Source: Verrucomicrobiota bacterium (lineage in GTDB: Bacteria; Verrucomicrobiota; Verrucomicrobiia; Limisphaerales; UBA11358). Taken from it: a stretch of DNA of 64,000 nucleotides. The stretch covers positions 104,622-168,621 of the forward strand of contig JBEKHY010000003.1 of NCBI GenBank assembly GCA_050012035.1, in the 5' to 3' direction. Of this stretch, positions 376-61,205 are shown piece by piece; positions within the stretch are counted from its first letter, which is position 1; the number at the start of each line of letters is the position of its first letter. The translations under genes were made by a program, and so were the position numbers. Below the pieces are notes generated by a model that made no database searches, was not told the DNA's origin, and worked only from the letters and a program-made list of their open reading frames with translations.

Positions 376-1668
376 ATGCCAAAATTCAACTACGTGGCAC
401 TGGACGCCCGGGGCAACGAAACGAAAGGCACCCTTGACGTCGCCACGCAGAACGAGGCCATTGGCCGCGTGAAGGAAATGGGCCTGTTCCCGACCCGGAT
501 TACCGAGGCCGATAAGATGTCGGAAAGGCTGGCCGTCAAAAGGGCCAGGGCCGGCGGCAAAAAACGCGGCGCGCTCGACCTCCAGATCAAAATCCCCGGC
601 CTCACCGGCCGGGTAAACCAAAAGGTGTTGACGTCCTTCACGCGGCAACTGGCGACCCTGGTGGACGCGGGCCTGCCCCTCTTGCGCGGGTTGCGCGTGC
701 TCGAAAAACAGGAGCGCAATTCCGCGCTCCGAACCATCCTGGGCGAACTGGCCCTGGCGATCGAGGGCGGCAGCACCTTTTCCGAGGCGCTGGCGCAACA
801 TCCCAAGACCTTCAACCGTTTGTTTGTGAACATGATCAAGGCGGGTGAACTGGGCGGCGTGCTGGAAGTGGTTTTGAAACGCCTGGCTGAATTCTCCGAA
901 AAGGCGCAGAAGATCAAAGGCAAGGTCAAATCCGCGCTGTTTTATCCGATAGCCGTGATGCTTGTCGCGACCGGCATCTTGATCCTGTTGATGACATTTG
1001 TCGTGCCCCGGTTCAAGGAGGTCTTCGCCGGCATGGACGTTCAGATGCCGGACTTCACGCTCTTCGTGCTCGCGGTCAGTGACGCCGTCAGGCATAACAT
1101 TGTGAAGACGCTGGGGGCCGTGGCGGTGGCGTGGGTTCTCATCGTGCTGTTTCTCAAGACCAAAATCGGCCGGCTGTTGTGGGATAATCTCAAACTCAAG
1201 CTGCCGGCCGTCGGGCCGGTCATCAGCAAGGTGGCCATTTCCCGTTTCTGCCGCACGCTCGGCACGCTCGTCAGCAGTGGTGTCCCCATTTTGCAGGCGT
1301 TGACCATTGTGAAGGAAACCGCCGGCAACGTCGTCATCAGCAACGCCGTCGCCAAGGTGCATGACAGCGTGAAAGAGGGCGAAACGATCACCGCGCCGCT
1401 GGAGAGCGCCCGCGTCTTCCCGCCCATGGTGGTCAGCATGGTGGACGTCGGCGAGCAGACCGGCGCCCTGCCGGAAATGCTCCTGAGAATCTCCGACAAC
1501 TACGACGAAGACGTGGACAACGCCGTCGCCGCCATGACCTCCTTGCTTGAGCCACTCATGATTGTCGTTCTGGCGCTTATGGTCGGCAGCATCGTCATTG
1601 CCATGTTCCTGCCGCTGATCAAGATGATTACCACCCTCAGCGGGGGCGGGGCCGCGGGCGGCGAATGA
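376..1668 (+). CDS. gspF: Type II secretion system platform protein GspF/PilC family
   Basis: 430 aa. Carries the duplicated GspF domain (FTRQLATLVDAGLPLLRGL and FCRTLGTLVSSGVPILQAL) and hydrophobic TM segments. Lies directly after gspE. Confidence 0.9.
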   Translation: MPKFNYVALDARGNETKGTLDVATQNEAIGRVKEMGLFPTRITEADKMSERLAVKRARAGGKKRGALDLQIKIPGLTGRVNQKVLTSFTRQLATLVDAGLPLLRGLRVLEKQERNSALRTILGELALAIEGGSTFSEALAQHPKTFNRLFVNMIKAGELGGVLEVVLKRLAEFSEKAQKIKGKVKSALFYPIAVMLVATGILILLMTFVVPRFKEVFAGMDVQMPDFTLFVLAVSDAVRHNIVKTLGAVAVAWVLIVLFLKTKIGRLLWDNLKLKLPAVGPVISKVAISRFCRTLGTLVSSGVPILQALTIVKETAGNVVISNAVAKVHDSVKEGETITAPLESARVFPPMVVSMVDVGEQTGALPEMLLRISDNYDEDVDNAVAAMTSLLEPLMIVVLALMVGSIVIAMFLPLIKMITTLSGGGAAGGE

Positions 1669-1794: not shown

Positions 1795-2088
1795 ATGGAG
1801 TTCGATTGGAATAATCCGCCCTTTGAAGTGGGTGGTTCTTTGGCTCAACGGGAAATTGAAGAGTCTTTTGAGGATCCGTTTGCCGTCCGGCTGTTGCCCG
1901 ATTCGCCGCGATTCGGTGTGCAGGCGCGGTTTTTCAATCTGGGCATGTCGGCGGGGGGCGTTGGCATCTGCAGCGTGTACCGGACGAACGGCCGGATGGT
2001 CCGGGTGTTGCACGCGCGCGCATTTGAACCGGAGGAGCGTTTTTTTTACCAGCGAAAGATGGACCAAACGTTGCAGGGTGACAGGTGA
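1795..2088 (+). CDS. BrnT-like (DUF497) toxin candidate
   Basis: 97 aa. Pattern MEFDW...IEESFEDPF...LGMSAGG...ICSVYRTNGRMVRVLHARAFEPEERFFY resembles DUF497/BrnT proteins. Followed by a CopG/BrnA-like antitoxin gene. Confidence 0.6.
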   Translation: MEFDWNNPPFEVGGSLAQREIEESFEDPFAVRLLPDSPRFGVQARFFNLGMSAGGVGICSVYRTNGRMVRVLHARAFEPEERFFYQRKMDQTLQGDR

Positions 2089-2139
2089 CACGTGACGGGT
2101 GACACGGCTTTATGCCACCGGTCACGTGTCACGTGACGC
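2077..2139 (+). repeat. GTGACA/TGTCAC heptad hairpin element, copy between brnT and brnA
   Basis: GGTGACAGGTGACACGTGACGGGTGACACGG ... CCGGTCACGTGTCACGTGACGC followed by TTTTTTAT, with the brnA ATG at 2146. Confidence 0.8.
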
Positions 2140-2145
2140 TTTTTT

Positions 2146-2421
2146 ATGCGGACCTTTGCCAGTTGGGAAGACGTGCCGCTCTTCGACAGCGAAGAAGCCG
2201 AGGCGGACTTTTGGTCGGAGAACCGGCCGGACCTGCGTTTGATGGAAGCGGCCACCGCCGGGAGCGCCGAGGCCTCCGAGTCGGTGACCATCACGCTGCG
2301 GATTGATCCACGGATGCTGGCGCGCATCAAGCGGCTGGCCCGGACACGGTATCTGAATTACCAGAGCATGATCAAACAGTGGTTGAGCGAACGGATGGAA
2401 GATGAATTGAAGGAACGATGA
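2146..2421 (+). CDS. CopG/BrnA-type antitoxin
   Basis: 91 aa. Pattern FDSEEAEADFWSEN...VTITLRIDPRMLARIKRLARTRYLNYQSMIKQWLSERM matches the CopG-antitoxin/BrnA ribbon-helix-helix architecture. Confidence 0.7.
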   Translation: MRTFASWEDVPLFDSEEAEADFWSENRPDLRLMEAATAGSAEASESVTITLRIDPRMLARIKRLARTRYLNYQSMIKQWLSERMEDELKER

Positions 2422-2432
2422 AAACGATAAAC

Positions 2433-2550
2433 GGTGACAAATGGCAGGTGGCCAGCCTTCGCCACGCTCCGGCACGGCAGGCAGGTGACAAGGCACCCAA
2501 CGGGGCGCGCGAGGCGTGTTCTCGTCACGTGTCACGTGTCACGTGTCACG
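2433..2550 (+). repeat. GTGACA/TGTCAC heptad hairpin element upstream of, and overlapping, the first pseudopilin start
   Basis: The left arm has GGTGACA / GGCAGGTG units. The right arm has four tandem GTCACGT heptamers (2524-2550). Confidence 0.8.
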
Positions 2551-3269
2551 CCATGGCTTTCACCCTTATCGAACTGCTCACGGTCATCTCCATTATCGCC
2601 ATGCTGGCGGCCTTCACCATCCCGGTGCTGAAGGGGATCAAGCGCCAGCAATACCTCCGGAGTGCGCAGGCGGAGATGGAGCAGATCGAAACGGCCATCG
2701 AACGCTACAAGGCCGCCTACGGCTTTTACCCGCCGGACAATCCCTGCGATCCCCGCGTCAACCAGCTTTACTTTGAATTGCTGGGAACGGCGGTCATCAC
2801 CAATGGCACCGTCCTGACTTATCAGTCGCTCGACGACCCCACCATCCAAATCGCAATTCCTACCCCGACCCAAAATGACTTTAAGAATGTCTTCGGCTCC
2901 GACGCGGGCGGGAACAATTGCGTGAATGGGTTTATGAACTGCACCAAGCCCGGTGCGGGCGAGGATACGCGCCCGGCCCAAAATTTTCTGCCCGGTTTGA
3001 AACCCGACCAGGTTACCGTCTTCACCAACAACTTCCCCGGGAACCAACTCCCGATTAAACTGCTGGTCGTTTCCGTCGGCGGGCCGGACTTTGCATATAG
3101 TCCGCTGGGCACAGGCGCGCAGGGCATCAACCCGTGGCGCTACAATTCCTCGAACCCGACCAACAATCCCGGTTCGTACGACCTGTGGGTTCAGCTTGCG
3201 ATCAGCGGGAAAACCAATCTCATCTGCAACTGGAGCAAACAAGTGCAGTTGAACAATACGCTGCCCTGA
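2529..3269 (+). CDS. Prepilin-type N-terminal cleavage/methylation domain pseudopilin (GspG-like N-terminus)
   Basis: Has AFTLIELLTVISIIAMLAAFTIPV, the class III signal/methylation motif. Start is ambiguous: GTG 2529 gives leader MSRVTCHAMA, ATG 2553 gives MA, and the track ORF starts at 2418 inside a repeat. Confidence 0.85.
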   Translation: MSRVTCHAMAFTLIELLTVISIIAMLAAFTIPVLKGIKRQQYLRSAQAEMEQIETAIERYKAAYGFYPPDNPCDPRVNQLYFELLGTAVITNGTVLTYQSLDDPTIQIAIPTPTQNDFKNVFGSDAGGNNCVNGFMNCTKPGAGEDTRPAQNFLPGLKPDQVTVFTNNFPGNQLPIKLLVVSVGGPDFAYSPLGTGAQGINPWRYNSSNPTNNPGSYDLWVQLAISGKTNLICNWSKQVQLNNTLP

Positions 3270-3473
3270 GTTTTTATGTGCGTCGCCACCCAATCCGGAT
3301 TCAGCCACAGTCAACGTCCGGTAGCCGTTGACTGGCAGGACTGCGGCTGGTGTCCGCTTATCATGGTGCAAGTGCCGGTGGCGGCGACGCCCCGTCGCCG
3401 GGCGGTAAAACCATTGTCCAGGCCATCGCTGCTTCAGTATCGCTCACGCCATGACCTTGCCTTTTTCACTACC

Positions 3474-4301
3474 ATGAAAACCATGCCGATTCGTTCACGC
3501 TGTCCCCGCGCGGGTTTCACCATCGTCGAATTGCTCACTGTCATCGCCATCATTGCCATTCTGGCGGCCATGCTGTTGCCGGTGCTGTCGGCGGCCAGAA
3601 AACGCGCGCAGAAGGTCCAGGCGCGCCTGGAGATTGACCAAATCGCGCAGGCCATCCTGAAATACGACTCGGATTATGGCCGGTTTCCGGTTTCAAGCGT
3701 CGTCCAGGCGGCGGCCACAAATGATTTCACCTACGGCGGCACTCTCGTCGATGCGGCTGGCTTTGTTACCCAGCCGGTGTACACCACGCCCACGTCCGGA
3801 GTCATGATGACCAACGAAGAGGTTATTGCCATTTTGATGGACCTCACCAATTACCCCAACGGCCAGCCGGTGCTGGCGAACATGAATTATCAGAAAAACC
3901 CGCAGCAGACGATTTACCTGAGCCCAAAAATGTCGGACTACAACCCGGCGGTTGATAAAGGACAGCCGCCGGGTGGCTTGGACCTGAACGGCGCTTACCG
4001 CGACCCGTGGGGCAATCCTTACATCATCACCATGGACTTGAACTACGACGAAAATTGCCGGGATTCGTTTTTCTGCTTGCAGAATGTGTCTCAACAAAAC
4101 GGCCAGACCGGTTTGGATGGGTTGTTCAATTCCGATCCGGGCGGCAACTCCGATAATTTCCAATATCACGGCAAGGTCATGGTCTGGTCTGCCGGGCCGG
4201 ATGGCATGATTGACCGGACGCCACTTCCCATGCCTCCGAATCCGTGGCGGGGAAGCGCCAATTCCGGAGTGAACAAAGACAACGTCCTGAGCTGGCAGTA
4301 A
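3474..4301 (+). CDS. gspG: Major pseudopilin, GspG family
   Basis: MKTMPIRSRCPRAGFTIVELLTVIAIIAILAAMLLP plus the GspG-type motifs DPWGNPY and WSAGPDG. ATG at 3474 gives a normal short basic leader. Confidence 0.85.
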   Translation: MKTMPIRSRCPRAGFTIVELLTVIAIIAILAAMLLPVLSAARKRAQKVQARLEIDQIAQAILKYDSDYGRFPVSSVVQAAATNDFTYGGTLVDAAGFVTQPVYTTPTSGVMMTNEEVIAILMDLTNYPNGQPVLANMNYQKNPQQTIYLSPKMSDYNPAVDKGQPPGGLDLNGAYRDPWGNPYIITMDLNYDENCRDSFFCLQNVSQQNGQTGLDGLFNSDPGGNSDNFQYHGKVMVWSAGPDGMIDRTPLPMPPNPWRGSANSGVNKDNVLSWQ

Positions 4302-4305
4302 AATG

Positions 4306-4413
4306 AAAAGTGACATGTGCCAAGTGATGCCAAAAGGTGGCAAGTGGCAAGTGGCAGGTGACAAGATAAGCCGCACGCCGCATCCGTGTCACGTGTCACC
4401 TGTCACGTGTCAC
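4306..4413 (+). repeat. GTGACA/TGTCAC heptad hairpin element (near-identical to the copy at 7083)
   Basis: aaaagtgacatgtgccaagtgatgccaaaaggtggcaagtggcaagtggcaggtgacaagataagccgcacgccgcatccgtgtcacgtgtcacctgtcacgtgtcaccc. Confidence 0.85.
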
Positions 4414-5232
4414 CCACCTGCCTTCACGCTCCTCGAATTGCTGGTGGTGATTTCCATTCTCGGCATCCTCGCCGCGCTGACCGTGCCGGCGCTCAAACAT
4501 TTCGGCAAATCGGACGTCACCATCAGCGCCTCGCGGCAGTTGCTCGACGGCGTGGCGCGCGCCCGCCAACTGGCCATCAGCCAGCGCACCACCGTCTATA
4601 TGGTTTTCGTCCCGACGAATTTTTGGGTGGTCGGGGGATTTGCTCCTCCCGCTGCCGGCAACACGTGGTGGGCCGGCCTGACCCCCGCCCAACAAATCGC
4701 CGCCACCAATTTGTGCGACCGGCAATTGTCCGGTTACAACTACATCGCCTGCGGCGCGATGGGTGATCAACCGGGGCAGCACGCCTGGCACTATCTCGCG
4801 TCCTGGCAAACGCTGCCGGACGGCGCGTTCATCGCCTTGATGAAATTCACCAATTCACCGAGTCAATACTTCACAATTACCGACCCGATTGATTCCACCA
4901 AGTCCTACAACGTTTACGGTTTCAGCGTTACCAACACGATCCCGTTTCCCACGGAAACGGCCACCAACGGCGTTTCGTTGCCGTACATTGCGTTCGACTA
5001 TCGCGGCCAGTTGGTTTCGGGAACGCATCCAGACACCGCCGGTAACGGCGAAAACATCCCGCTGGCGCAGGGCAGCGTGCTGCCCGCGATCAACCTCGAC
5101 ACCAAGGCGCTGCAATTCGGCGATGCCGACGCCGCGGAAATTCCGCCCGGCAACAGCACCAACATCGCCTACAAAATCGTCCACATTGACGGGCTGACCG
5201 GCCGCGCGGTTTTGGAATATCACCGAATGTGA
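4393..5232 (+). CDS. Prepilin-type pseudopilin
   Basis: Has AFTLLELLVVISILGILAAL. In-frame GTG at 4393 gives leader MSPVTCHPPA. The upstream ATG at 4303 lies in a repeat element that recurs at 7075. Confidence 0.8.
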   Translation: MSPVTCHPPAFTLLELLVVISILGILAALTVPALKHFGKSDVTISASRQLLDGVARARQLAISQRTTVYMVFVPTNFWVVGGFAPPAAGNTWWAGLTPAQQIAATNLCDRQLSGYNYIACGAMGDQPGQHAWHYLASWQTLPDGAFIALMKFTNSPSQYFTITDPIDSTKSYNVYGFSVTNTIPFPTETATNGVSLPYIAFDYRGQLVSGTHPDTAGNGENIPLAQGSVLPAINLDTKALQFGDADAAEIPPGNSTNIAYKIVHIDGLTGRAVLEYHRM

Positions 5233-5234
5233 CC

Positions 5235-6074
5235 ATGAACCTTCCCGTACGGCATCTTCAATTTTCAGGTAGGGCGGTCAGTCCCCTGACCGCCGCGGTC
5301 TGCGCGCAGGGGACTGCGCGCCCTACCCGTCATGCCGGTTTCACGCTGGTCGAGATTGCCATCTGCCTGGCCATCATCAGCGTGGCGCTGGTCGCCATCA
5401 TCGGCGTGCTGCCCATCGGCATGCGCACGCAGCGCGACAACCGCGAGGAAACCATCATCAACCAGGACGCCACCGTATTCCTCGAAGCCGTCCGCAGCGG
5501 CGCGCGCGGCCTTGACGACCTCACCAACTATGTCTATGCCATCACCAATTTCCGGGGTATTTATCCCGGCGGAACACTAAACACCTACGGCTACACTTTC
5601 CCCAACAACATTTTCACCAATATCGTCGGATTCTTAAGCACACCGGAATACACGGACGTTACCAACGGCACGCCCATCCCCAATCTCTTGTCCGGCGGTT
5701 ACAGCAATCACATCGTGGCCTACGTCCGCTCCTTGAGCGGGCCGGCGGTGGAAAAACCGCCGCAGGACAACGACATCATTCTGGGCGACGCTTTTGGCTA
5801 TCGCATCCTGTGCGTCAACGCGCCGGTGGCGACCGACACGAACGTCTTTGTGCTGCCTCCCGGCCAACGGCCTTACAACACGCAGCTTGCCGACAGCCTG
5901 CATGAGTTGCGGCTGACGTTTCTGTGGCCGCAACTGCCCAACGGCGGTGTGGGCGCCGGCCGCCAGACCTTCCGCACGCTGGTCGCGGGGCAAATCCTGC
6001 AGCTCACCAACAACAATCAAACGCTGTATTTTTACCAGCCGCAATCCTTCACCAACGCCGTCAACCCGCTGTGA
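5235..6074 (+). CDS. Prepilin-type pseudopilin
   Basis: Has AGFTLVEIAICLAIISVALVAIIGVLP. The only in-frame starts are GTG 5229 and ATG 5235, so the leader is unusually long and contains a REP hairpin. Confidence 0.8.
   Translation: MNLPVRHLQFSGRAVSPLTAAVCAQGTARPTRHAGFTLVEIAICLAIISVALVAIIGVLPIGMRTQRDNREETIINQDATVFLEAVRSGARGLDDLTNYVYAITNFRGIYPGGTLNTYGYTFPNNIFTNIVGFLSTPEYTDVTNGTPIPNLLSGGYSNHIVAYVRSLSGPAVEKPPQDNDIILGDAFGYRILCVNAPVATDTNVFVLPPGQRPYNTQLADSLHELRLTFLWPQLPNGGVGAGRQTFRTLVAGQILQLTNNNQTLYFYQPQSFTNAVNPL
5268..5327 (+). repeat. GGTAGGGCG-type REP hairpin inside the pseudopilin leader-coding region
   Basis: GGTAGGGCG-gt-CAGTCCCCTG ... CAGGGGACTG-cg-CGCCCTACC. Both stems are exact reverse complements. 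Confidence 0.85.
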
Positions 6075-6084
6075 AAACAAACCG

Positions 6085-6163
6085 AAAAGTGACAAGTGAC
6101 ACGTGGCATGTGACAAGGGCCGGCTCGCAGGCGACACCGCTTGTCACGTGTCACCCGTCACGC
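6085..6163 (+). repeat. GTGACA/TGTCAC heptad hairpin element
   Basis: AAGTGAC AAGTGAC ACGTGGC ATGTGAC ... TTGTCAC GTGTCAC CCGTCAC. Ends 1 nt before the TTG 6164 candidate start. Confidence 0.8.
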
Positions 6164-7078
6164 TTGCCGCGCCGTAGCGGAGCGAAGGCGGGCGCCTTTT
6201 CCCTCGTCGAAATCATGGTGGTGATCGGGTTGTTGTCGCTCATCGTGCTGGCGTTGATGGCGGTGTTCAACAGCGCGCAGACGGCGTTTCGGGCCAGCAT
6301 CACCCAGACCGACGTGCTGGAAGGCGGGCGCGCGACGATGGACCTGATGGCGGCCGATTTGCGGCAAATGGCGCCGTCATTGGGCAATAGCAATGATCTG
6401 ACCAGCGTTTATTACAGCACTAATCCGGTGAATTTTTACGCCAGCACCAACTCGTATTACACCCAGCCGTTAGTGCAACCCCTGACGGGCAGTGGTCAGT
6501 CGCGTACGAACGTGCTGGAAACCTTTTTCGTCCTGGGCCGTGGCAATCTGAACGGCCGTCCGACCTGGTTCGGCATGGGTTACGCGGTGGATGTGGCAAC
6601 GAACTCGAACTACTTGAACCCGCTTTATCACTTTTATATGACGACGAACGTCGAGGCTTCGCCCAATCCGGTGACACTTTTCACCAATTTCATGGCGTCG
6701 GTCGTAGCCGGCACCTTTACCAACGCCAACTGGAGCCATTTGCTCGACGGGGTGGTGGATTTGCGCGTGCGGGCCTACGACACCCATGGCCTCTGGATGA
6801 CCAACGGCTACACCTTCGGATACACCAACACCGCGCGCAACGTCCTCTTTCTTCCGTCCACCCTGGGCGAGTGCGGTTTTTACATGTTCAGCAACACGCT
6901 GCCCGCGTCGGTGGAAATCCAGCTTGGGGTGCTCGAAGACCGTGTGCTCCAGCGCGCCGCCACATGGCCGAACGGTTCCCAGCAGCAAAACAGCTACCTC
7001 CAGCAACAGGCCGGCAAGGTCCACCTCTTTCGCCAGCGCGTGACCATTTCCAATGTTGATCCCTCAGCCTACCAATGA
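6164..7078 (+). CDS. Prepilin-type pseudopilin
   Basis: Has GAFSLVEIMVVIGLLSLIVLALMAV. In-frame TTG 6164 gives leader MPRRSGAKAGA. The track start at 5924 overlaps the preceding gene by 150 nt. Confidence 0.75.
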   Translation: MPRRSGAKAGAFSLVEIMVVIGLLSLIVLALMAVFNSAQTAFRASITQTDVLEGGRATMDLMAADLRQMAPSLGNSNDLTSVYYSTNPVNFYASTNSYYTQPLVQPLTGSGQSRTNVLETFFVLGRGNLNGRPTWFGMGYAVDVATNSNYLNPLYHFYMTTNVEASPNPVTLFTNFMASVVAGTFTNANWSHLLDGVVDLRVRAYDTHGLWMTNGYTFGYTNTARNVLFLPSTLGECGFYMFSNTLPASVEIQLGVLEDRVLQRAATWPNGSQQQNSYLQQQAGKVHLFRQRVTISNVDPSAYQ

Positions 7079-7082
7079 AACT

Positions 7083-7235
7083 GAAAAGTGACATGTGGCA
7101 AGTGATGCCAAAAAGTGGCAAGTGGCAAGTGGCAGGTGACAAGATAAGCCGCACGCCGCATCCGTGTCACGTGTCACGTGTCACGTGTCACCCGTCACCT
7201 TTCCCCCGTCACGTGTCACCCGTCACCCGTCACCC
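7083..7235 (+). repeat. GTGACA/TGTCAC heptad hairpin element, expanded copy
   Basis: Same ~100-bp core as 4306-4413, with additional GTCACGT/GTCACCC heptamers (7165-7235). Confidence 0.85.
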
Positions 7236-10200
7236 TCGGAGTGGCATGGCCCTGGTTATCACGTTGATCATGCTGTCGGTGACGCTCGTCATGGCCGTGG
7301 CCTTTCTGGCCATCAGCCGCCGCGAACGCAACGCCGTCACCACCACCACCGACACCGCCACCGCCCGGCTGGCTGCCGACGCCGCGCTCGCCGGCGCCGA
7401 GGCGCAAATCGTCGCGAACCTCTTTGCCTCCACCAATGCCGCCGCCTACAACTTCGGCCTGCTCGTCTCCACCAACTACATCAATGGCTACGGTTTTAAT
7501 CCGGCGGGAGGCGCCAACCCCACCAACGTCAATTTCGATTACACGTACAACGGAGCGGCGTTCAAGGCCGACGACCTCAATCAGGATTTCGCCAATCTGT
7601 TTTTTCTCCCGCGCGTGCCGGTCTATATGACCAACCTCGTCTTCCACACAAACGAAAACCGGTTTTATCTCGACCTCAACCGCAACGGCCGATTCGAGGA
7701 TACGCGCACGAACGTGCCCAACGTGGACTATCTGGGCGTGACGAACGGCACCATTCCCGAAGTCGGTGACCCCCAGTGGGTCGGCGTGCTGGACCACCCC
7801 GACGCGCCGCACGGGCCGAACAACCGGTTTGTGTCGCGCTACGCCTTCATCGCCGTGCCCGTCGGCAACACCCTCGACCTCAACGCCATTCACAACCAGG
7901 TCCTCAACGAACCCAGTGCGCCATCATCCATCCCGATTACGATTAACCCGCCGGCGAACGGCGACGGCTATTTCCGCAATCAAGGCGTTGGCTCCTGGGA
8001 AATCAATCTGGCCGCGTTTCTGGCCGACTTGAACACCAACCAGTGGGGTGAAACCATCGATCCGCCCAATGTTCAACCCAGCGCTCCGACTTATTACCAA
8101 TACAACGAACCTAAAAATTATAATCACGGTTACGCCTTTGACGACGCCCGGGCGCTGCTGGCTTACCGTTACGCGAACGATTACAATTCACTCGCTTCGG
8201 TGGACAGTTTATACGGCGTCGCTGGTCTCGGACACTTCGCGTTCTTATACGACAACATTGACGGTTATTCGGACGGGCCATTGATGACGACCTTGAATAC
8301 CAACGAATTTTCCTCCCCGGACAGACCCCAGTTGCCGTGGGCGGGCGCGGACAACACCAATCAATTCTTCACGCCGGAGGAATTGTTTGACACCAACAAA
8401 ACCGGAATCGGCGCGGCCGTGCCCCGTTTTACCGACCGCCTGCTCGCCGCCGGCACGAATACGTTCGGCGGCACCACCGTTCCCACCTACGACCGCTACA
8501 CGTTTTACCGGATGCTCGACGAGCTGGGTTCCGATTCCGTGCCGGACTCGGGCAAAATCAACCTCAATTATTCCAACGCCGTCGTCCAAACCGACCGCAA
8601 CGGAAGTATCACCAATATCGCCGTCATGCCCGGCGCAGAAACCAATTTCGTTCCGTGGACGACGACCAATTTCTTCCTGGCGGCGGCCGACCGGATGCTG
8701 CGCCTTTACAGCAGCAACTGGTTCCAGGGAAGCTCGTTCGACTATTACACGAATTACACTGCTGTCACCAACTGGATCTATGTTGACCAGTCCAATTATC
8801 TGGCGACTTATTACGGTATCTACACGAATTACTTCTCTTATGTTGATGCGCAGGGCCGTTATATTTGGAACGCGCCCAACGGACTTGGTCTCACCAACGT
8901 TCCGTTTTATGGCATGACCAACCAGGTGCCTGCGTTTGGCATCACGAACATTCCGGTCTGGGTGAACAACCAGTTTGTCTATACGCCCGCCGTCAACCGC
9001 CTGCTCCAACTGGCGGCCAATATTTACGACGCAACAACGAACAACAGCATCAACGGCTCACCGGATTATCCGCACGTCTTCCGACCGCTGTTTTCGCGGG
9101 ATGCAAACAGTGCGGGCATTCGCGGCATGGGTACCAATCTCTTTGTCAGCGGCTATGCTGAAGTTACGTCGGTCAACGTAGTCAACGGCGTAGTCAACGA
9201 CCTTCAACTCTCTCTCCCCGTTAACGCTTCGGCTTTGGCCACGACGAACGTTGCCGTCCACAACATGCCGGTGAATGTGTATGGCGTGCCGTGGATTATT
9301 GGCGCGAAGAAAGGGTTTCCGAACTTCAACGAGTTCTACATGGAGAGCGCCTTCCGGCTCACGCGCAAGCTGATGGTCACCCGCCAGAGCACCAATATGT
9401 CGACGCCGGCGCCGCCCCCGTCGAGTCCATTCTGGGGCTATTACGTGATGTATAATCTGAGCCTCAGCAACCATTTTGGTGTGGAATGCTGGAACTCCTA
9501 CCACTCCAATTACACCCGCCCGCTCACCATTTACATCACCGATGATTTGACGATGATACTGACCAACGACGAAGTGATGGGCGAAGGAGGACAGCTCTTT
9601 AACAACGGCTTCAGCAACCATCTGTTCACCAGCGTATCGGTGACGACCAACTCGTGGCAGGGTTACATTCCCGGCAGTCAATTCGCTCCGCTTTCATTCC
9701 TGACCAATTTCCCGGACCCATCCGGTTTGGGAATCATACCAACGAACTTTGCCGCCATACCGGATTCGCGGTATATGTTCAACGGCAACTCTCCCTATCT
9801 GACCACGAATCTGGATTTGTGGTATGAAACGACTGGCACCGGCTTTGGCACATATCCGGAACCGCACTGGTGGCTGACGATGGCCAATAACCTGCGATTG
9901 ATTATGGTGGACACCAGTGATCCGAACAATGGGAAGGTCATTGATTACGTGCAGTTGGCCGGGCCGAACAGCCTTCGGGATTTGACAGCGGAAATCCAGA
10001 GGGGGTATGACACGAGCCCGACCACAAACTACAATGATCTATGGGACACGAACCAAATTAGCCCTACCAGTGCTCCCAACGGAATTGCCAACCAGTATGC
10101 CATCTCCCAGGGAAACGGAAATCCAACCTGGACTCAAACCTTATGGGGCGACCAGAAGATGGCTTATGATGCGATGAATGCTTTTCGCGCCTTCACGATT

Positions 10201-11439
10201 GGCCCGGATTCAGAGATTACGTATGACGGATATGTGCCCGACCAGAATCTAATCGGCGCGGCCCTGATGACCAATGCCATGCAAATGCCTTACATGCCCA
10301 CGGCGCTGGTCGTGCAAGACATCGTCTGGCAGGCAAATGACCCGCTGGTGCATTACCTGGCCAGCGACTTGACAGATCCCACCGCCGGACAAGGGTTGCG
10401 GGTCTATCTGAATTGGCCGGGCAATCTGGGCCAGTTGAACCAGCGTTACCGGCCGTGGGGCGCCACCGGAGACACCAATGCCTACACGCTCGCCATCAAG
10501 GACCCGCTGATTTACAGCTCGGATGATTGGAATTTCCCGACGAACAGATTCCCGACGGTCGGCTGGCTGGGCCGCGTCCACCGCGGCACGCCGTGGCAGA
10601 CGGTTTATCTCAAGGCATCGGATGTCCTGTCCTTCACAAACATGTTCGGCAACTACGGCACCAACCTTTGGATTGACCGGACGGGCAATGTGAATCCGTT
10701 TGATGCCGCCAATACCGCGCCGAAGAAGGATTGGCTGTTGTTCGACGTATTCACCACGGCGTTCAACGACAACGCCACGCGGGGCCAGCTTTCCGTCAAC
10801 GTGGCGGCTGACAAGCTCGACCCGATGGCGGGTCTGGCGGCGTGGTCGGCCTTGTTCAGCGGCGTCATGGTCCTTTACAACAATGCGAGCGATAACACGC
10901 TTTTGCAGCCCACGTTTCGGCAGGGCGCTAATTCGATAACGACTTACACGGACTACCCCATTTCCCCGGCGGGACCGGGCACGAACTCGGCGCTGTGGCA
11001 ATTGGTGCAGGGCATTTACAACACGCGCACGAATTTCACGAATCCGGATGGCGTAAAAGGCGCTTTTGAGCACGTTGGCTACATTCTCTCCGTGCCGCAA
11101 CTGACTCAGTATTCGCCGTTCCTCAATGCGATTACCAATGGAGTCGGAGATGGCGTTCAACAGCAATATGGCATCAGCGATGAGATGTATGAATGGCTGC
11201 CGCAGCAGGTGATGTCGCTGTTGCGCGCCGGGCCGCCGCGTTACGTGATTTATTGCTACGGCCAGGCGCTCAAGCCGGCGCCCAATTCGCTGGTGACCGG
11301 CGGAACTTATTTCGGCATGTGCACGAATTATCAGGTGGTGGCGGAGAGCGCCGCGCGCGCGGTGGTGCGCGTGGACGGCGCGGGCACGTCCGCGCCGCGC
11401 GTGGTAGTGGAAAGTTTCAACCCTTTGCCGCCGGATTAA
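7213..11439 (+). CDS. Very large pilus/T2SS-associated protein with GspK/PilX-like hydrophobic N-terminus
   Basis: ~1400-aa uninterrupted ORF. The N-terminus (RSGMALVITLIMLSVTLVMAVAFLAISRRERN) resembles minor pseudopilin GspK/PilX anchors. Last gene of the pseudopilin run. Start is either GTG 7213 or ATG 7246. Confidence 0.8.
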   Translation: MSPVTRHPRSGMALVITLIMLSVTLVMAVAFLAISRRERNAVTTTTDTATARLAADAALAGAEAQIVANLFASTNAAAYNFGLLVSTNYINGYGFNPAGGANPTNVNFDYTYNGAAFKADDLNQDFANLFFLPRVPVYMTNLVFHTNENRFYLDLNRNGRFEDTRTNVPNVDYLGVTNGTIPEVGDPQWVGVLDHPDAPHGPNNRFVSRYAFIAVPVGNTLDLNAIHNQVLNEPSAPSSIPITINPPANGDGYFRNQGVGSWEINLAAFLADLNTNQWGETIDPPNVQPSAPTYYQYNEPKNYNHGYAFDDARALLAYRYANDYNSLASVDSLYGVAGLGHFAFLYDNIDGYSDGPLMTTLNTNEFSSPDRPQLPWAGADNTNQFFTPEELFDTNKTGIGAAVPRFTDRLLAAGTNTFGGTTVPTYDRYTFYRMLDELGSDSVPDSGKINLNYSNAVVQTDRNGSITNIAVMPGAETNFVPWTTTNFFLAAADRMLRLYSSNWFQGSSFDYYTNYTAVTNWIYVDQSNYLATYYGIYTNYFSYVDAQGRYIWNAPNGLGLTNVPFYGMTNQVPAFGITNIPVWVNNQFVYTPAVNRLLQLAANIYDATTNNSINGSPDYPHVFRPLFSRDANSAGIRGMGTNLFVSGYAEVTSVNVVNGVVNDLQLSLPVNASALATTNVAVHNMPVNVYGVPWIIGAKKGFPNFNEFYMESAFRLTRKLMVTRQSTNMSTPAPPPSSPFWGYYVMYNLSLSNHFGVECWNSYHSNYTRPLTIYITDDLTMILTNDEVMGEGGQLFNNGFSNHLFTSVSVTTNSWQGYIPGSQFAPLSFLTNFPDPSGLGIIPTNFAAIPDSRYMFNGNSPYLTTNLDLWYETTGTGFGTYPEPHWWLTMANNLRLIMVDTSDPNNGKVIDYVQLAGPNSLRDLTAEIQRGYDTSPTTNYNDLWDTNQISPTSAPNGIANQYAISQGNGNPTWTQTLWGDQKMAYDAMNAFRAFTIGPDSEITYDGYVPDQNLIGAALMTNAMQMPYMPTALVVQDIVWQANDPLVHYLASDLTDPTAGQGLRVYLNWPGNLGQLNQRYRPWGATGDTNAYTLAIKDPLIYSSDDWNFPTNRFPTVGWLGRVHRGTPWQTVYLKASDVLSFTNMFGNYGTNLWIDRTGNVNPFDAANTAPKKDWLLFDVFTTAFNDNATRGQLSVNVAADKLDPMAGLAAWSALFSGVMVLYNNASDNTLLQPTFRQGANSITTYTDYPISPAGPGTNSALWQLVQGIYNTRTNFTNPDGVKGAFEHVGYILSVPQLTQYSPFLNAITNGVGDGVQQQYGISDEMYEWLPQQVMSLLRAGPPRYVIYCYGQALKPAPNSLVTGGTYFGMCTNYQVVAESAARAVVRVDGAGTSAPRVVVESFNPLPPD

Positions 11440-11483: not shown

Positions 11484-11539
11484 GGTAGGGACGGCTCGCC
11501 GAGCCGTCCGCACGGGCATCTCGGCGAGATGCCCCTACC
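11484..11539 (+). repeat. GGTAGGGAC-type nested REP element
   Basis: GGTAGGG-ACGGCTCGCCGAGCCGT-ccgcac-GGGCATCTCGGCGAGATGCCC-CTACC. Confidence 0.8.
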
Positions 11540-11787: not shown

Positions 11788-14700
11788 ATGCGTTCGCGCC
11801 GCATCATTCTGATTTCCGCGTGCCTGCTGCTGGTGGCGGGCGCGTGGTTCTTCTGGCCGCGTGGGAATGGCCGGGCCGGCTCGTCCACCCTCCGCAGTAT
11901 TGCTACGGAGGACGGGTCCAACCGTCCGCACAAAGCGGTTGCCCCGACGGTCCGTTCCGGCCCGACCGTGGCCCAGGCCACGCCTTTGACCTTTCTCTCG
12001 ACCAACAACCCCCGGGCCGCCGCCGCCGCCCGGGCCAGGGCATACCGATTCCGTTTTCGCCTGGCCAACACCACCAAAACCATCGGCGAATTAACGCGCG
12101 ATCCGCACGCGATACTGCTGGCCAACGCGCTCATTGACACGGAGGCCAAACTCGATCTGGCCATTCCCAAAAACCTGCAAGCCACGGGCGACCCGGGCGC
12201 TTACATCGTCCAGGCCCACGGCCCGATTGACAATGCCTTCCGGGCGACGCTGGCGGCAGCGGGCGCGCAAATCGTTTCCTACATCCCGAACAATGCCTAC
12301 CTCGTGAACCTTTCCGCGAGCGGCGCGAACAGCATCGCGTCGGAAGGATTTTCGGTGATTCCCTACGAGCCATATTACAAATTGAGTTCGTCGCTGCTGG
12401 CGGCGGTGGCGAACAACCAGCCGGCGGGTGAATTGAAGGTGGCGGCGTTTCCGGGCACGGCCGACGCCACCAAAACCGCGTTGGCAAAAATCGGCGTGAC
12501 CGTCGTTGCGGAAGAAACCACCCCGCTCGGCCCGTTGTTCGTCCTGCAGAACGTGAGCGACGTGACCGCCGTCGCGCAAATTCCCACGGTGCACATTGTC
12601 GAGCCGTCCTACAAGCGCGTCCCGGCGAACGATTTGTCGCGCGCGACGGTGGGCGTGGCGGCGAATGCGCAAACAACCAACAATTATATGAATCTTTCCG
12701 GGGCGAATGTGCTCGTGGAGGTGAACGACTCGGGCATTGACGCAACGCATCCGGATTTGTTGCCCCGGGTGTCCGGCGATCTGCCAACCAGCCTCGTGGA
12801 CACCGACGGCCACGGCACGCATGTGGCGGGCATCATTGCCGGTAACGGGGCGATGTCCACGACCGTGAGCAACGTGCCGGGTTCGACCTTTGGCACCAAC
12901 GGTTTCGCGGCGGTCGGCCAATTTCGCGGCATGGCGCCGGCGGCCCAATTGATTTCGGTAGGTTCCCTGGGTGGTGATACCAACGCCACGTCCGACCGTT
13001 ATTTGCAGGAAACACCGGCGCAAAGGAACGCGCTGATTTCCAACAACAGTTGGAATTACGATGGCGACAATGACTATGACCTGGCGGCGGCGAGCTACGA
13101 CGCGGCGGTGCGCGATGCGCTGGCGCAGGTGACCGGCTCGCAGCCGGTGCTGTTCGTGTTTTCGGCGGGCAACGACGGCAATGGCGACGACACGGACAGT
13201 TCACCCAACGGCACGCCCGACAGCATCGAATCGCCCGCCACGGCCAAAAACGTCATCACCGTGGGCGCCATCCAGGAGTTACGCAACATTAACAATCAGG
13301 TGACCAATGCGGATGGCACAGTTACCACTCCGTGGTTCAACGAAACCAGCACCGATTCCCGCGTCTACAGTTCTTCCGGCCGCGGCAACGTGGGCATCCT
13401 GACGGAGGGTACCTATGGCCGGTTCAAGCCGGACGTGGTGGCGCCGGGCACGTTTATTGTTTCCACCCGCTCCAGCCAGTGGGACATCGGGACGTTTTTC
13501 TTTGCCAGCCCGACCAACATCAGCGTCGGGATTAACCACATCGCACCCATCAAGCCGAACAGGCTGGGAGCAAATACATTTCCGCCTGTGTTTACGAATA
13601 CCGTTCAAGTGACCATCCAGTTGCTTCCCAACGGGGATTCGCCGGTTCCGTTTCCCAATCTGCCGATCTATTTCGGACTGCTGAGTCTAACACCAGTCTA
13701 CGATCATTTTACAACCAACAACCAGGTTTCCATCCCGCTCGACGGCGGCCTGACCATTGCCGACATCCTTAACACCGAAAGCATATATGGTGACTCATAT
13801 GCTTTCTACTACGCCATCAGCAACAGCACCAGCGAGCCGATCACTATGGATGTCGTTACCGAAATCTTCACAACCAACAACCCCGGCAACTCGCAACTGG
13901 TGTTGAGCAATTTGAACCAGTTCATCGGCACGCCCAACCCCAACAGCACCGGGCCGGGGCCGTATTACCGTTATGAAACCGGCACCAGCATGTCCGCGGC
14001 GGACGTGTCCGGCGTGCTGGCGTTGATAGACGATTACTTCACCAACACGCTGCGAACCGTGCCCAGCCCGGCGTTGCTCAAGGCCCTGCTCATCAATGGC
14101 GCGCGTCCCACCCAGGGTTACAACCTGCTGGTCCAAAACAATAACAACCCCGAAGGTTGGGGTTTGATCAGCCTGCCGGACTCGCTGCCGTCGGGCGTGA
14201 CGAACGTATCCGGCCCAAACGCAAGCTGCTCCAGCTTCTTTATTGACCAAAGCCCGACCAACGCGCTGGCCACCGGTGACCGCCATACGTTCCTGGTGAG
14301 CGTCAATCCCACCAATGGCGCGCAGGCGTATCCGTTGCGCGTGACGCTGGCCTGGACCGACCCGCCCGGCGACCCTGCCGCCGCCGTCAAGCTCGTCAAC
14401 AATCTCGACCTCGTCGTGACCAATCTCGATAACCCGGCAAATCCCGTTATTTTCTACGGCAACGACATCGGCGCGAGCTCGAGCTTTCCCTTCAACAACG
14501 CCCATGGCACGAACGACCCGGCCAATTTTGATAACATCAACAATATCGAGAATGTTTTCATCTCGTCGCAGCCGCAACTGGGCACGAATTATTCCATCAC
14601 CGTCATCGGCCGCGGCGTGAACGTCAACGCCGTCACCGCGCAGACGAACAACATCGTGCAGGATTTTGCGCTGGTGATTTCGTGCGGCGAAGGCGAAGTG

Positions 14701-32821: not shown

Positions 32822-32974
32822 GCAACCGGGAAAGCAGCAAGTCGCAGGCCAGATTTGTTTCGAGTTTCAGACCGTGCCGCCTGCAGTGATTTCGCCGGCT
32901 TGACGCCTCCGGCTGGGCAGCCTACTTTCCACTTATTCGGGGAGCCAACCCGGCTTGTTGTAGCGGCGGTCTAT

Positions 32975-33068
32975 GACCGTAGCTGGCAGGCAAAGGCTGA
33001 GAGGGCGACGCGGGAGCGTCGCCGACCCGTTGAACCTGATCCGGATAATGCCGGCGAAGGGAGCCACA
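32975..33068 (+). promoter_or_regulatory. TPP (THI-box) riboswitch upstream of thiC
   Basis: Contains the conserved THI-element strings GGCTGAGA and ACCCGTTGAACCTGATCCGGATAATGCCGGCGAAGGGAG, immediately 5' of thiC. Boundaries are approximate. Confidence 0.85.
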
Positions 33069-33087
33069 ATTCCTTCCCCCATTCCCG

Positions 33088-35238
<2,151 letters not shown>

Positions 35239-55428: not shown

Positions 55429-55461
55429 ACCGCGGAAACTAGATTTTCCTGCGCAATTCTC

Positions 55462-55542
55462 AACGCAGAGGCGCAGAGGGCGCAGAGATTCGCGGAGTCG
55501 AATGTTCTTTGCGGTCCTCAGCGTTCTCCGCGTCTCTGCGTT
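55462..55542. repeat. REP-type hairpin (AACGCAGAG...CTCTGCGTT family) between convergent genes
   Basis: AACGCAGAG (55462-55470) pairs with CTCTGCGTT (55534-55542). CGCGGAG (55491-55497) pairs with CTCCGCG (55526-55532). The left arm carries reiterated GCGCAGAG units. Confidence 0.7.
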
Positions 55543-55560
55543 AAAATTTCCGATTTCCAG

Positions 55561-60553: not shown

Positions 60554-61108
60554 ATGAACCTCCTGCAAACCATCCTGATTCTGGCCGCCGCTTTCCTCGC
60601 GGTGTCCGGCGAAGCGACGCTGGCCGGCCTCCGTCCCTGGCTCGGCGCGCAGGTGGACTTGTTGCCGGTGCTGATGGTGTATGCGGCGTTGAACGCGGAC
60701 CTCGTGACTGTATCGCTGTTCGCCGTTTCCGGCGGCCTGTGGTTCGACGCGTTGTCCGCCAATCCCCTGGGCACAAGCATCCTGCCGTTGGCCGCCGTTG
60801 GTTTTGTGATTTGGCGGCAACGCGAATTGATTCTACGCGAATCGCCGTTCGCGCAATTGGTCCTCGGCGCCATCGCCAGCGCGGTTGTGCCCGGCCTGTC
60901 CGTATTGGTGCTGTTGACCATCAGCCAGCAACCGCTGCTCGGCTGGGGTTCGATCTGGCAATGGCTGGTGATGACCGCCGGCGGCGCGGTAGCGACGCCG
61001 GTCATCTTTGTGTTGTTTGACTGGTGCAACCACGCGCTCGGTTATCAGCCGCGCACGGAAACCAGTTTCCGTCCCGACCGCGAAATCCGGCGGGACAAAA
61101 TAATATGA
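60554..61108 (+). CDS. mreD: Rod shape-determining protein MreD
   Basis: 184-aa polytopic hydrophobic protein between mreC and mrdA. Confidence 0.8.
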   Translation: MNLLQTILILAAAFLAVSGEATLAGLRPWLGAQVDLLPVLMVYAALNADLVTVSLFAVSGGLWFDALSANPLGTSILPLAAVGFVIWRQRELILRESPFAQLVLGAIASAVVPGLSVLVLLTISQQPLLGWGSIWQWLVMTAGGAVATPVIFVLFDWCNHALGYQPRTETSFRPDREIRRDKII

Positions 61109-61203
61109 GTCTACAGTTTCCAGTCCAAAGTCCGCGGTCGGAACGCCGCTGCGCCGGCGACGACATTGCTGTGGACTGTGGACTGTCGACTGTCGACTGT
61201 GTG
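61108..61203 (+). repeat. Heptad-periodic palindromic element (AGTCC / GGACTGT arms) abutting the mrdA start codon
   Basis: The right arm (GACTGTG GACTGTG GACTGTC GACTGTC GACTGTG, 61173-61203) is five tandem heptamers and ends 2 nt before ATG 61206. The left arm (61108-61140) has CAGT/AGTC at 7-nt spacing. Confidence 0.7.
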
Positions 61204-61205
61204 CC

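Follow-up and report, generated by a model that had tools for sequence, protein, structure and literature searches.

Heptanucleotide repeats are described as the most abundant class of long simple sequence repeats (SSRs), and slippage of seven-nucleotide units has been suggested as their origin (PMC4679880, citing Mrazek 2007). TAACTGA arrays are known from Beggiatoaceae, Cyanobacteria, and Bacteroidetes; those of Beggiatoaceae stop a few nucleotides short of start codons (PMC4679880), and some GGGAATC heptad arrays of Xanthomonas form inverted pairs capable of forming stem–loops (PMC4692102). Rickettsia palindromic elements (RPEs) insert in frame into open reading frames (ORFs) and are translated, and the added peptide leaves the protein undisturbed (PMC10969869, citing Ogata 2000). 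Here we consider a 64,000-nucleotide stretch of a Verrucomicrobiota bacterium of the Limisphaerales (assembly GCA_050012035.1, contig JBEKHY010000003.1, forward-strand positions 104,622 to 168,621; hereafter the window, numbered from its first letter). Within a conserved pilus/T2SS-like operon it carries five hairpins, designated A to E, whose two arms are tandem, inverted heptanucleotide arrays of the GTGACA/TGTCAC type.

Two further systems are relevant. The leaders of type IVa prepilins are 5–10 amino acids (aa) long, and those of type IVb prepilins are 15–30 aa long with ordinary conserved sequences. The omega repressor of pSM19035 (inc18 plasmids), a ribbon-helix-helix protein, binds to arrays, direct or inverted, in which WATCACW heptads follow one another without gaps.

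The window elements resemble each of these systems in part. With the heptamers of the short tandemly repeated repetitive (STRR) type, namely the cyanobacterial STRR, GGGAATC, and TAACTGA, they share tandem 7-nt units (usually two to six copies in those families), an over-representation of period 7, a sporadic phylogenetic distribution, and fast variation in length and sequence between close relatives. In contrast to these, the inverted arrangement is here the rule, the units comprise GTGACA and at least eight others, and four pilin-linked copies lie in open ORFs and appear to be translated, whereas STRR-type heptamers are reported as essentially intergenic; element A and the GTGAC copies of other genomes are likewise intergenic. 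Like RPEs, the elements are palindromic repeats lying in frame and stop-free within coding genes. However, RPEs measure about 100–150 bp, have a conserved sequence, are not heptad arrays, and occupy surface-exposed sites of many unrelated proteins, whereas the present elements are confined to a cleavable N-terminal leader and have been repeatedly replaced at the same site. Repetitive extragenic palindromes and bacterial interspersed mosaic elements (REP/BIME), which can stabilize mRNA or bind protein, are also short, abundant palindromes that separate genes within an operon, with several families per genome, and intergenic GTGAC copies (element A and those of Pyrinomonadaceae) are positioned like REPs. 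Unlike REP/BIME, the elements have 7-nt repetitive arms, many copies are intragenic, and the conserved GTAG head, the recognition determinant of the REP-associated tyrosine transposase (RAYT), is missing from the heptad arms, which begin A-rich and continue with GTGAC units. The proteins themselves are akin to type IVb or long-leader prepilins (class III signal peptides) in having G/A at −1, F/M at +1, E at +5, and a hydrophobic helix, but their leaders are typically 35–48 aa (up to 95), are dictated by DNA repeats, and differ between near-identical strains. Our literature search found no account of heptad palindromes translated as prepilin leaders or of their cassette-like replacement, and literal heptad strings returned unrelated eukaryotic matches only.

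The best-supported interpretation is that all five elements belong to a dispersed class of palindromes that evolve fast and both arms of which are tandem 7-nt repeats (inverted heptanucleotide SSR arrays). We consider it somewhat better than an even bet that they are REP- or STRR-like palindromes that live, translated, in the cleavable prepilin leader, and not a dedicated regulatory RNA. The elements and the leaders that hold them are as follows.

2078..2145, + strand: element A, intergenic type; left arm 2078–2104 (four GTGAC units), loop, right arm 2121–2139.
2418..2558, + strand: pilin 1 leader with element B; 47 codons, MKTINGDKWQV...SRHVSRVTCHAMA and then FTLIELL.
4303..4422, + strand: pilin 3 leader with element C; 40 codons from ATG 4303; left arm 4310–4363, loop, right arm 4387–4413.
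6071..6196, + strand: pilin 5 leader with element D; 42 codons from GTG 6071 (GTGA overlap with the pilin 4 stop); left arm 6089–6115, right arm 6143–6161.
7075..7245, + strand: leader of the 1454-aa PilX/GspK-like protein with element E; 57 codons from ATG 7075 (ATGA overlap); left arm 7088–7141, right arm 7166–7233 (nine GTCAC units).

Direct reading of 1800–7600 places all five hairpins within 2078–7233, each with a GTG(A/G)CA left arm at 7-nt spacing opposite a GTCAC(GT/CC/CT) right arm; together with counts in shuffled sequence, this confirms the copies that the original prediction had placed at 2077, 2433, 4306, 6085, and 7083. The motif GTCACNNGTCAC has 24 matches in the window, where shuffled sequence would give 0.13, and GTGRCANGTGRCA has 22, where it would give 0.03. 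Ten tandem arrays of period 7 are present, compared with zero or one for every other period from 4 to 12, and the arrays comprise three to nine units, mostly three or four. The palindromic structure corresponds to the inverted repeats I6, I7, I9, and I10 of an inverted-repeat scan. Elements C and E have about 108 nt in common with three mismatches, after which the number of right-arm heptads differs, just as had been noted for the copies at 4306 and 7083. The earlier proposal that the elements sit at pilin starts holds for the copies that overlap the 5′ ends of pilin ORFs; it fails for element A, which is not at a pilin and instead lies between a 97-aa gene and a gene for a CopG-type antitoxin.

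In four copies (2077, 4306, 6085, and 7083), the imperfect palindromes are predicted to form stable stem–loops of −41 to −53 kcal/mol that are better than shuffles: −41.2 kcal/mol for element A (z = −5.5), −46 kcal/mol for C (z = −3.2), −45.9 kcal/mol for D (z = −2.4), and −52.9 kcal/mol for E (z = −3.4). The copy at 2433, element B, folds weakly (z = −1.1) because an unrelated repeat of 30–40 nt (about 2454–2484) splits its left arm into units at 2434–2453 and 2485–2490; its right arm spans 2524–2549. For the window elements, the two strands fold about equally well. No Rfam 15 covariance model matches the elements at gathering thresholds. At E ≤ 1, the interval 1900–7400 yields three chance-level matches, each far under its own family's gathering score; the match overlapping element E is to mir-43_2, with 19.8 bits against a gathering score of 90. 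Promoter-like pattern matches (8, with 4.8 expected) are at chance level, and so is the terminator-like pattern scan apart from the T-run 3′ of element A. This T6 run (2140–2145) directly precedes ATG 2146 and makes element A the only copy to fit the pattern; elements B–E run into coding sequence and have no T-run.

Among the 120 best database homologues of pilin 1 (P0001–P0120), most carry N-terminal extensions of 30–50 aa of the form MKT.KSDKWQVTSD...S(R/C)H(V/A)SRVT(C/R)H..A↓FTLIELL (the arrow marks the cleavage site), and in others the leader peptide is set by other heptads, as in ...FQMPNAECRIE..DFVIRHSSF..RA↓FTL and ...LPIADCRLPIE...IENRKSKIVNG↓FTL. The shared stretch ...H(V/A)S(R/P)VT(C/R)H... 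of the pilin leaders is encoded by the elements, and to this extent the original prediction is supported. In each of the 103 array-bearing leaders whose upstream gene could be identified, an in-frame start codon lies between −12 and +30 nt of the upstream stop (87 ATG, 45 of them as ATGA, and 16 GTG or TTG), and ATGA/GTGA overlaps and an MK(T/I/N) N-terminus are conserved in related leaders. In the window, the ORF of pilin 1 (2418–3269) is open throughout from ATG 2418, which forms an ATGA overlap with the TGA of the CopG-like gene, to the cleavage-site codon F at 2559 and beyond; the PilX/GspK-like ORF (7075–11439) is likewise open, and the GTGA junction of pilin 5 is kept in L125, L127, L130, and L148. 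These comparisons show the hairpins to lie inside ORFs whose predicted start codon is at the upstream stop. The array-bearing leaders have a median length of 38 aa (interquartile range 35–48, up to 95), against 23 aa for those without arrays; in the window the heptad-bearing leaders, of 47, 40, 42, and 57 aa, are longer than the roughly 5–30 aa of a short basic leader. The distance from start codon to first array is broad and not fixed.

The original prediction had instead placed initiation at a GTG inside CACGTGTCAC of the right arm, giving a 10–11-aa MSxVTCH leader; the hairpin would be an untranslated, strand-specific RNA structure that sequesters or exposes this start. The in-frame GTG codons do exist at 2529, 4393, and 7213, P0096, a database orthologue, has its annotated start at MSRVTCHAPA↓FTL..., and the JGI caller picks downstream starts on identical DNA. 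However, beyond the onset of the right arm 75 of the 103 leaders (73%) contain no ATG, GTG, or TTG, and 95 contain no ATG. Heptads of other families at orthologous sites are unable to supply a start there. The GTG codons in CACGTGTCAC are a by-product of the GTCACGT unit; they are dispensable, and the majority of orthologues lack such a codon. Start codons at the upstream stop in every leader, the conserved overlaps and N-terminus, the purging of in-frame TGA from left arms that this model regards as untranslated, and the lack of a folding advantage for the sense strand all speak against it, and we consider it improbable. On DNA identical at elements D and E the contigs L204, L206, and L209 differ from L205, L207, and L212 in their JGI/ENA calls (1397 vs. 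1454 aa for the PilX-like protein, 304 vs. 287 aa for pilin 5), which makes the database N-termini of both proteins unreliable.

In-frame stops have been purged from the arms. Upstream of 236 unique cleavage sites, only 1 of 48 GTGNC units that could present an in-frame TGA does so, whereas A stands at that position in 64 of 127 out-of-frame units (Fisher p = 1e-10). All in-frame units of elements C and E read TGG or TGC, never TGA, and the sole GTGGCA unit of element D is the one in the TGA frame. The same purge is seen in other unit families, where pairing is given up for it: opposite its left arm ATTTACG, L123 has CAATCAT and not CGTAAAT, which contains TAA, and in the GCTAAAG family the opposite arm is CTTCAGC and not CTTTAGC, which contains TAG. 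The GTGGCA units had been taken as evidence of a strand-specific RNA on account of their G:U wobble. They sit where GTGACA would give an in-frame TGA, and because TGA is purged from in-frame units only, the supposed wobble represents stop-codon avoidance. The sense strand is on average less stable than the antisense: among the listed matches to the GTGAC pattern in other genomes, comparison of 97 intergenic copies found sense more stable in 34 and antisense in 52, and in a comparison of 232 leader regions those with two arrays averaged −46.1 kcal/mol (sense) against −53.9 kcal/mol (antisense), with sense ahead in 9 cases and antisense in 44.

About 80 related operons were available, comprising three (L121, L123, and L124) found through pilin 1 homologues and 76 loci from a metagenome scan with an alignment of pilin 4. 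In L121, L123, and L124, period-7 inverted arrays occupy nearly all pilin junctions, built from at least nine different units:

Heptad units at orthologous junctions: GTGACA/TGTCAC; AATGCCG/CATTCGN; GGATTGC/GCACTTC; GCTAAAG/CTTCAGC; CAACATT/AATGTTG.
Heptad units at orthologous junctions, continued: GAGTCCA/TGGACTG; ATTTACG/CAATCAT; CGATTTG/CAATCGT; GGGGTCT/CCAGAAC (the last at the junction of the 97-aa and CopG genes).

At the element A junction, L124 has the same element, and L123 has the GGGGTCT/CCAGAAC heptad hairpin. The 42 related loci of the clade, 355 kb in all, contain 230 period-7 arrays and at most 10 of any other period; 162 of them fall within 150 nt before a prepilin cleavage codon (6.4% of the sequence) and 203 (88%) in the leader segments of pilins and PilX-like proteins, a contrast inflated by the choice of loci around the operon. 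The T2SSE/F junctions of the operon carry no heptad arrays. About half of the array-bearing leaders have only one recognizable arm (58 vs. 55), as expected of decaying insertions. Hairpin-free orthologues with leaders of 9–16 aa exist, heptad-less leaders often hold another palindrome, and more distant relatives (≤40% identity) have ordinary leaders of 5–20 aa and no arrays.

This distribution bears on the possibility that the hairpins are selected for their structure, as a long stem 0–17 nt past a start codon that overlaps the upstream stop. Such a stem might mediate translational coupling and stoichiometry, each pilin's translation depending on a ribosome arriving from the upstream gene; it might stabilize the intercistronic mRNA; or it might be an RNase III site at which untranslated mRNA is destroyed by severing the AUG from its ORF. 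The heptad make-up would then reflect only how stems arise and are renewed. Position is indeed kept while sequence is replaced, at six junctions across the clade, the heptad-less leaders often have another palindrome in place (e.g., 5268–5327), two-array leader regions fold better than shuffles (mean z = −2.3), and intergenic stem–loops of Clostridium have been reported to set operon stoichiometry (PMC4423207, PMC8219983). Against selection for structure stand the lower stability of the sense RNA, the pairing given up to remove stops (CGTAAAT to CATCAAT; CTTTAGC to CTTCAGC), the one-armed half of the elements and the hairpin-free orthologues, the broad start-to-array distance, an AUG that is unpaired in the predicted fold of element C, and the bare T2SSE/F junctions. 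We regard this explanation as unlikely, though still a serious contender.

Several of these observations weigh against our preferred reading of the elements as tolerated, translated palindromes. The concentration of arrays in the leaders of one operon is not predicted by tolerance and needs targeted insertion, local spread, or positive selection. The same junctions are occupied clade-wide despite sequence turnover, as selection for any hairpin at that place would give. In GTGAC arms, moreover, TGG took the place of the in-frame stop in 18 of about 19 bona fide cases; as no other change would retain a G:U pair in the coding strand, this preference hints that pairing matters, a hint weakened by shared ancestry and transition bias, as the cases are not phylogenetically independent. 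Finally, no mobilizing enzyme or target-site duplication was found, the window not having been searched for a RAYT gene. An alternative that we hold doubtful, at about the same level as selection for structure, is that the hairpins are a position-conserved, sequence-free module needed by this clade at the 5′ end of every pseudopilin cistron, for instance a translated stem by which the expression or mRNA survival of each gene would depend on translation of the preceding one, or the trace of an undescribed system of insertion or recombination that specifically targets prepilin leaders and replaces them as cassettes. Either, if true, would explain both the concentration of arrays in these leaders and the differing elements of near-identical strains.

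Turnover between strains is indeed rapid and cassette-like. In the 240 nt that follow the cleavage codon of pilin 5, the loci L130 and L143 show 99% identity, and they also resemble each other on the 5′ side of the GTGA junction, yet their leader elements are unrelated; L143 and L121 differ by a 33-nt nested palindrome. The pair L121 and L122, which are identical across the pilin region, was uninformative as a strain comparison. The strain of the window occurs in peat metagenomes (JGI 3300038451, 3300038423, 3300018015, and 3300017941; ENA ERZ27249707, ERZ27249994, and ERZ27250177). Among contigs from other samples that encode the exact pilin 4 protein of the window, elements A, B, and D are invariant in 8–11, and element C has one variant (L210) with 72 additional nucleotides, consisting of extra heptads and a piece resembling the 3′ part of element D, in frame; element E has one variant (L212) that lacks 42 nt (six heptads), also in frame. 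From this exchange of pieces among C, D, and E we infer probable recombination or template switching between copies. An analogy with integron attC sites, hairpins between cassettes that are conserved in structure, was rejected, the gene order being syntenic and no R′/R″ cores being visible by eye.

A unit length that is not divisible by three, arrays within ORFs, and copy number that varies between strains raise the possibility of contingency loci, in which slippage by one heptad would shift the frame and switch a pilin on or off; phase variation by heptad repeats is known in other bacteria (PMC12721329). Yet every one of the 103 leaders can be read in frame from a start at the upstream stop, and no out-of-frame allele was seen among them. 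The two strain polymorphisms found, of +72 and −42 nt, preserve the frame, each element is unchanged in seven to eleven further contigs, and the arrays are short. Phase variation at these loci is therefore very improbable.

Beyond the operon, a scan of 185,579 species genomes for the two-armed GTGAC pattern recovered at least 120 loci (L001–L120). The matches listed, to which the following counts refer, fall mostly in Pyrinomonadaceae/Blastocatellia, with many in Verrucomicrobiota and few elsewhere; as the labels Bifidobacterium, Heliobacteriaceae, and Clostridia on some metagenome-assembled genomes may reflect binning errors, only the two main phyla are relied on. Flanking genes are tandem in 97 cases, convergent in 15, and divergent in 15, proportions as in ordinary spacers. 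In 75 of the 94 tandem cases the upstream stop is found −25 to +15 nt from the left arm, and in 31 it is itself the TGA of a GTGAC unit; the 97-aa gene of the window likewise ends with the TGA of element A's second GTGAC unit (2086–2088). The hairpins occupy the whole spacer, with the next ATG usually 6–20 nt past the right arm. Only 2 of the 94 tandem cases are open in the downstream gene's frame, and the TGA-bearing unit gives stop codons in all three frames in the Pyrinomonadaceae spacers. Downstream lie genes of unrelated kinds (dnaJ, GAPDH, thiolase, alanine dehydrogenase), and the GTGAC family is therefore rejected as a pilin-specific sequence family. The Pyrinomonadaceae hairpins often have a 5′ A-run and a 3′ T-run (AAAAACAGTGAC...GTCACTGTTTTT), in the shape of a bidirectional intrinsic terminator; despite this shape, an ATG follows 6–20 nt on, with no recognizable Shine–Dalgarno sequence.

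These data also address whether the heptads are protein-binding operators, read by the CopG/ribbon-helix-helix protein encoded at 2146–2421, by analogy with the omega repressor, or by a factor recognizing CACGTG, as the original prediction had considered. Like omega operators, the arrays are contiguous 7-bp direct and inverted units with a GTCAC core resembling ATCAC, and a ribbon-helix-helix gene conserved in the operon adjoins them. Unlike omega operators, they show at least nine unrelated units at orthologous junctions, which one DNA-binding specificity could not read; they lie within ORFs and not in promoters, promoter-like matches being at chance; and GTGAC hairpins adjoin unrelated genes in other phyla. 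A CACGTG array falls for the same reason, namely that unrelated heptads stand at orthologous sites. A conserved promoter-like site with a palindrome upstream of the 97-aa gene would be the better candidate operator, and an operator function for the heptads is the least probable of the explanations considered.

The mechanism that we favor for the translated palindromes may be outlined as follows. Overlapping genes (ATGA) would leave no intergenic space, so that the elements sit in the only dispensable coding sequence, the prepilin leader. Translation would begin at an ATG or GTG overlapping or abutting the upstream stop, and the ribosome would read through the whole hairpin, yielding a leader of 40–57 aa that is presumably cut off by prepilin peptidase at G/A↓F(T/S)L(I/V)E. 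The leader being removed, an element would cost the mature pilin nothing, given a length that is a multiple of three and no in-frame stop; as far as sequence comparison can tell, these two properties are the only clearly visible selection. The arrays would arise by heptad slippage and by recombination or template switching between elements, and whole leader cassettes would be swapped between near-identical strains. The elements may thus take up any constraint-free sequence, be it the short intergenic spacers of Pyrinomonadaceae or the leader in this operon. The sequence comparisons themselves show the repeat class with its period, the location within ORFs, the start at the upstream stop, the purging of stops, the turnover between strains, and the lack of a folding advantage for the sense strand; leader cleavage, a mutational or mobile origin, and the absence of a sequence-specific function are what we infer.

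Other palindromes and heptads of the window, and one leader that has none, are listed next.

3474..4301, + strand: pilin 2 (PulG-like); Pfam N_methyl E = 1e-6 and a weak T2SSG match; 14-aa leader MKTMPIRSRCPRAG and then FTIVELL; no heptad element.
5235..5339, + strand: pilin 4 leader with a non-heptad palindrome; GTAGGG...CCCTAC ends at 5268–5327, translated as GRAVSPLTAAVCAQGTARPT.
33084..33150, + strand: decayed GTGAC element with four left-arm units and a degenerate right arm, between a thiamine pyrophosphate (TPP) riboswitch (32928–33079) and the thiC start (about 33155).
61100..61204, + strand: heptad hairpin of another unit family, GAGTCYA/TGGACTG (... / CTGTGGA), 1 nt before ATG 61206 of a 665-aa ORF.

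Pilin 2 shows an unexpanded leader. The palindrome of pilin 4 is the inverted repeat I3, with 26-nt arms that are 85% complementary, and its frame is open to G↓FTLVEIAI. A second GTAGGG...CCCTAC palindrome lies at 11484–11539, after the 1454-aa gene; both are REP-like in appearance only. Peptides akin to that of the pilin 4 palindrome (GRAVSPLTAA..., GSTPAPGV...TRGGCAP) are found in the leaders of other genomes. From the hairpin at 61100–61204 it is clear that this genome holds further heptad families besides GTGAC, and its unit family recurs in the pilin 4 leader of L123. Of the related heptamers noted earlier at 33088 and 29659, the former is a real four-unit left arm and the latter a weak match; the sense fold of the element at 33084–33150 is no better than shuffles (z = +1.0). 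The riboswitch scores 58.8 bits, and the four-unit GTGAC array lies 3′ of the aptamer, where the expression platform would be.

Small repeats are nested within the heptad elements, at 2454–2484 in element B and, after the right arm of element D, at 6164–6196. They encode SLRHAPARQAG and LPRRSGAKAGA, respectively; nesting is also seen in the L210 variant of element C, and the motifs recur in many orthologue leaders (LRQTSARQAGD, ACRAVASERRLA), which suggests that several repeat families insert into one another. Elsewhere, the interval 55452–55552 holds an inverted repeat with 36-nt arms of GCGCAGAG(G) units with an apparent period of 8–9 nt, a repeat-armed palindrome of another period, and on the − strand 48433–48478 matches the Acido-Lenti-1 RNA with 49.6 bits (gathering score 37).

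Pfam matches and synteny identify the region as a conserved operon resembling those for pili and type II secretion systems, and its nearest named relatives are labeled Limisphaerales and Verrucomicrobiota. The gene order is three T2SSE ATPases, T2SSF, the 97-aa gene, the CopG/BrnA-type gene, five prepilin-type genes, the 1454-aa PilX/GspK-like gene, and a giant ORF. The members flanking the elements are listed below.

376..1668, + strand: T2SSF (GspF/PilC-type platform protein); Pfam T2SSF E = 9e-66; gene order shared with L121, L123, and L124.
1795..2088, + strand: conserved 97-aa gene; called in identical strain contigs; no Pfam match; upstream of the antitoxin-like gene, the usual place of a BrnT-type toxin.
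2146..2421, + strand: CopG/BrnA-type ribbon-helix-helix antitoxin-like gene; Pfam CopG_antitoxin E = 9e-11; in all orthologous operons.
11788–20721: giant ORF; orthologue in L121/L122 with a subtilase (Peptidase_S8) domain.

The prepilin motif (G/A at −1, F/M at +1, E at +5) and a hydrophobic N-terminal helix can be read directly in all six pilin-type genes. The curated N_methyl cut-off of Pfam is reached by pilins 2 and 4 (E = 1e-6 and 3e-6); pilins 3 and 5 fall below it (E = 8e-4 and 0.01), and the search gave no matches for pilin 1 or the 1454-aa protein. Identification of the 97-aa protein as BrnT finds no Pfam support, and a recent toxin–antitoxin insertion upstream of pilin 1 is rejected, the 97-aa/CopG pair being a conserved member of the operon. 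Upstream of this pair, at 1715–1790, a promoter-like TTGACA-N18-TAAATA is followed by a small palindrome (ACATTGTAAACACATTGCATG) at about 1745–1775. The site is conserved in all orthologous operons (L121 about 9140–9215, L123 about 9260–9320, L124 about 9300–9365) and is plausibly an operator for the ribbon-helix-helix protein and, within the operon, the promoter for its pilin section. A further conserved block, GCCGTTGACTGGC-N(about 30)-GGTGCAA at 3318–3372, lies in the 200–500-nt region between pilins 1 and 2 and also at junction 4 of L121, L123, and L124. In the pilin 2 frame it reads ...VAVDWQDC.W.P...VQ... in many genomes, and it could belong to a conserved 5′-untranslated region or promoter of the PulG-like pilin, or else be translated as an extension.

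If the elements are indeed translated leader palindromes, the prepilin peptidases of this clade would process leaders of 35–60 aa and more, of arbitrary and strain-variable sequence, and ribosomes that have read only a few codons would routinely have to pass through stems of about −40 to −50 kcal/mol. For annotation, gene callers that differ by 17–57 codons on identical DNA affect the starts and supposed N-terminal domains of hundreds of pilin-like proteins of Verrucomicrobia. More broadly, the operon offers a natural system for the long-noted heptanucleotide excess in bacteria, with many families, inverted arrays, a coding constraint that can be measured, and defined sites at which the turnover is cassette-like.

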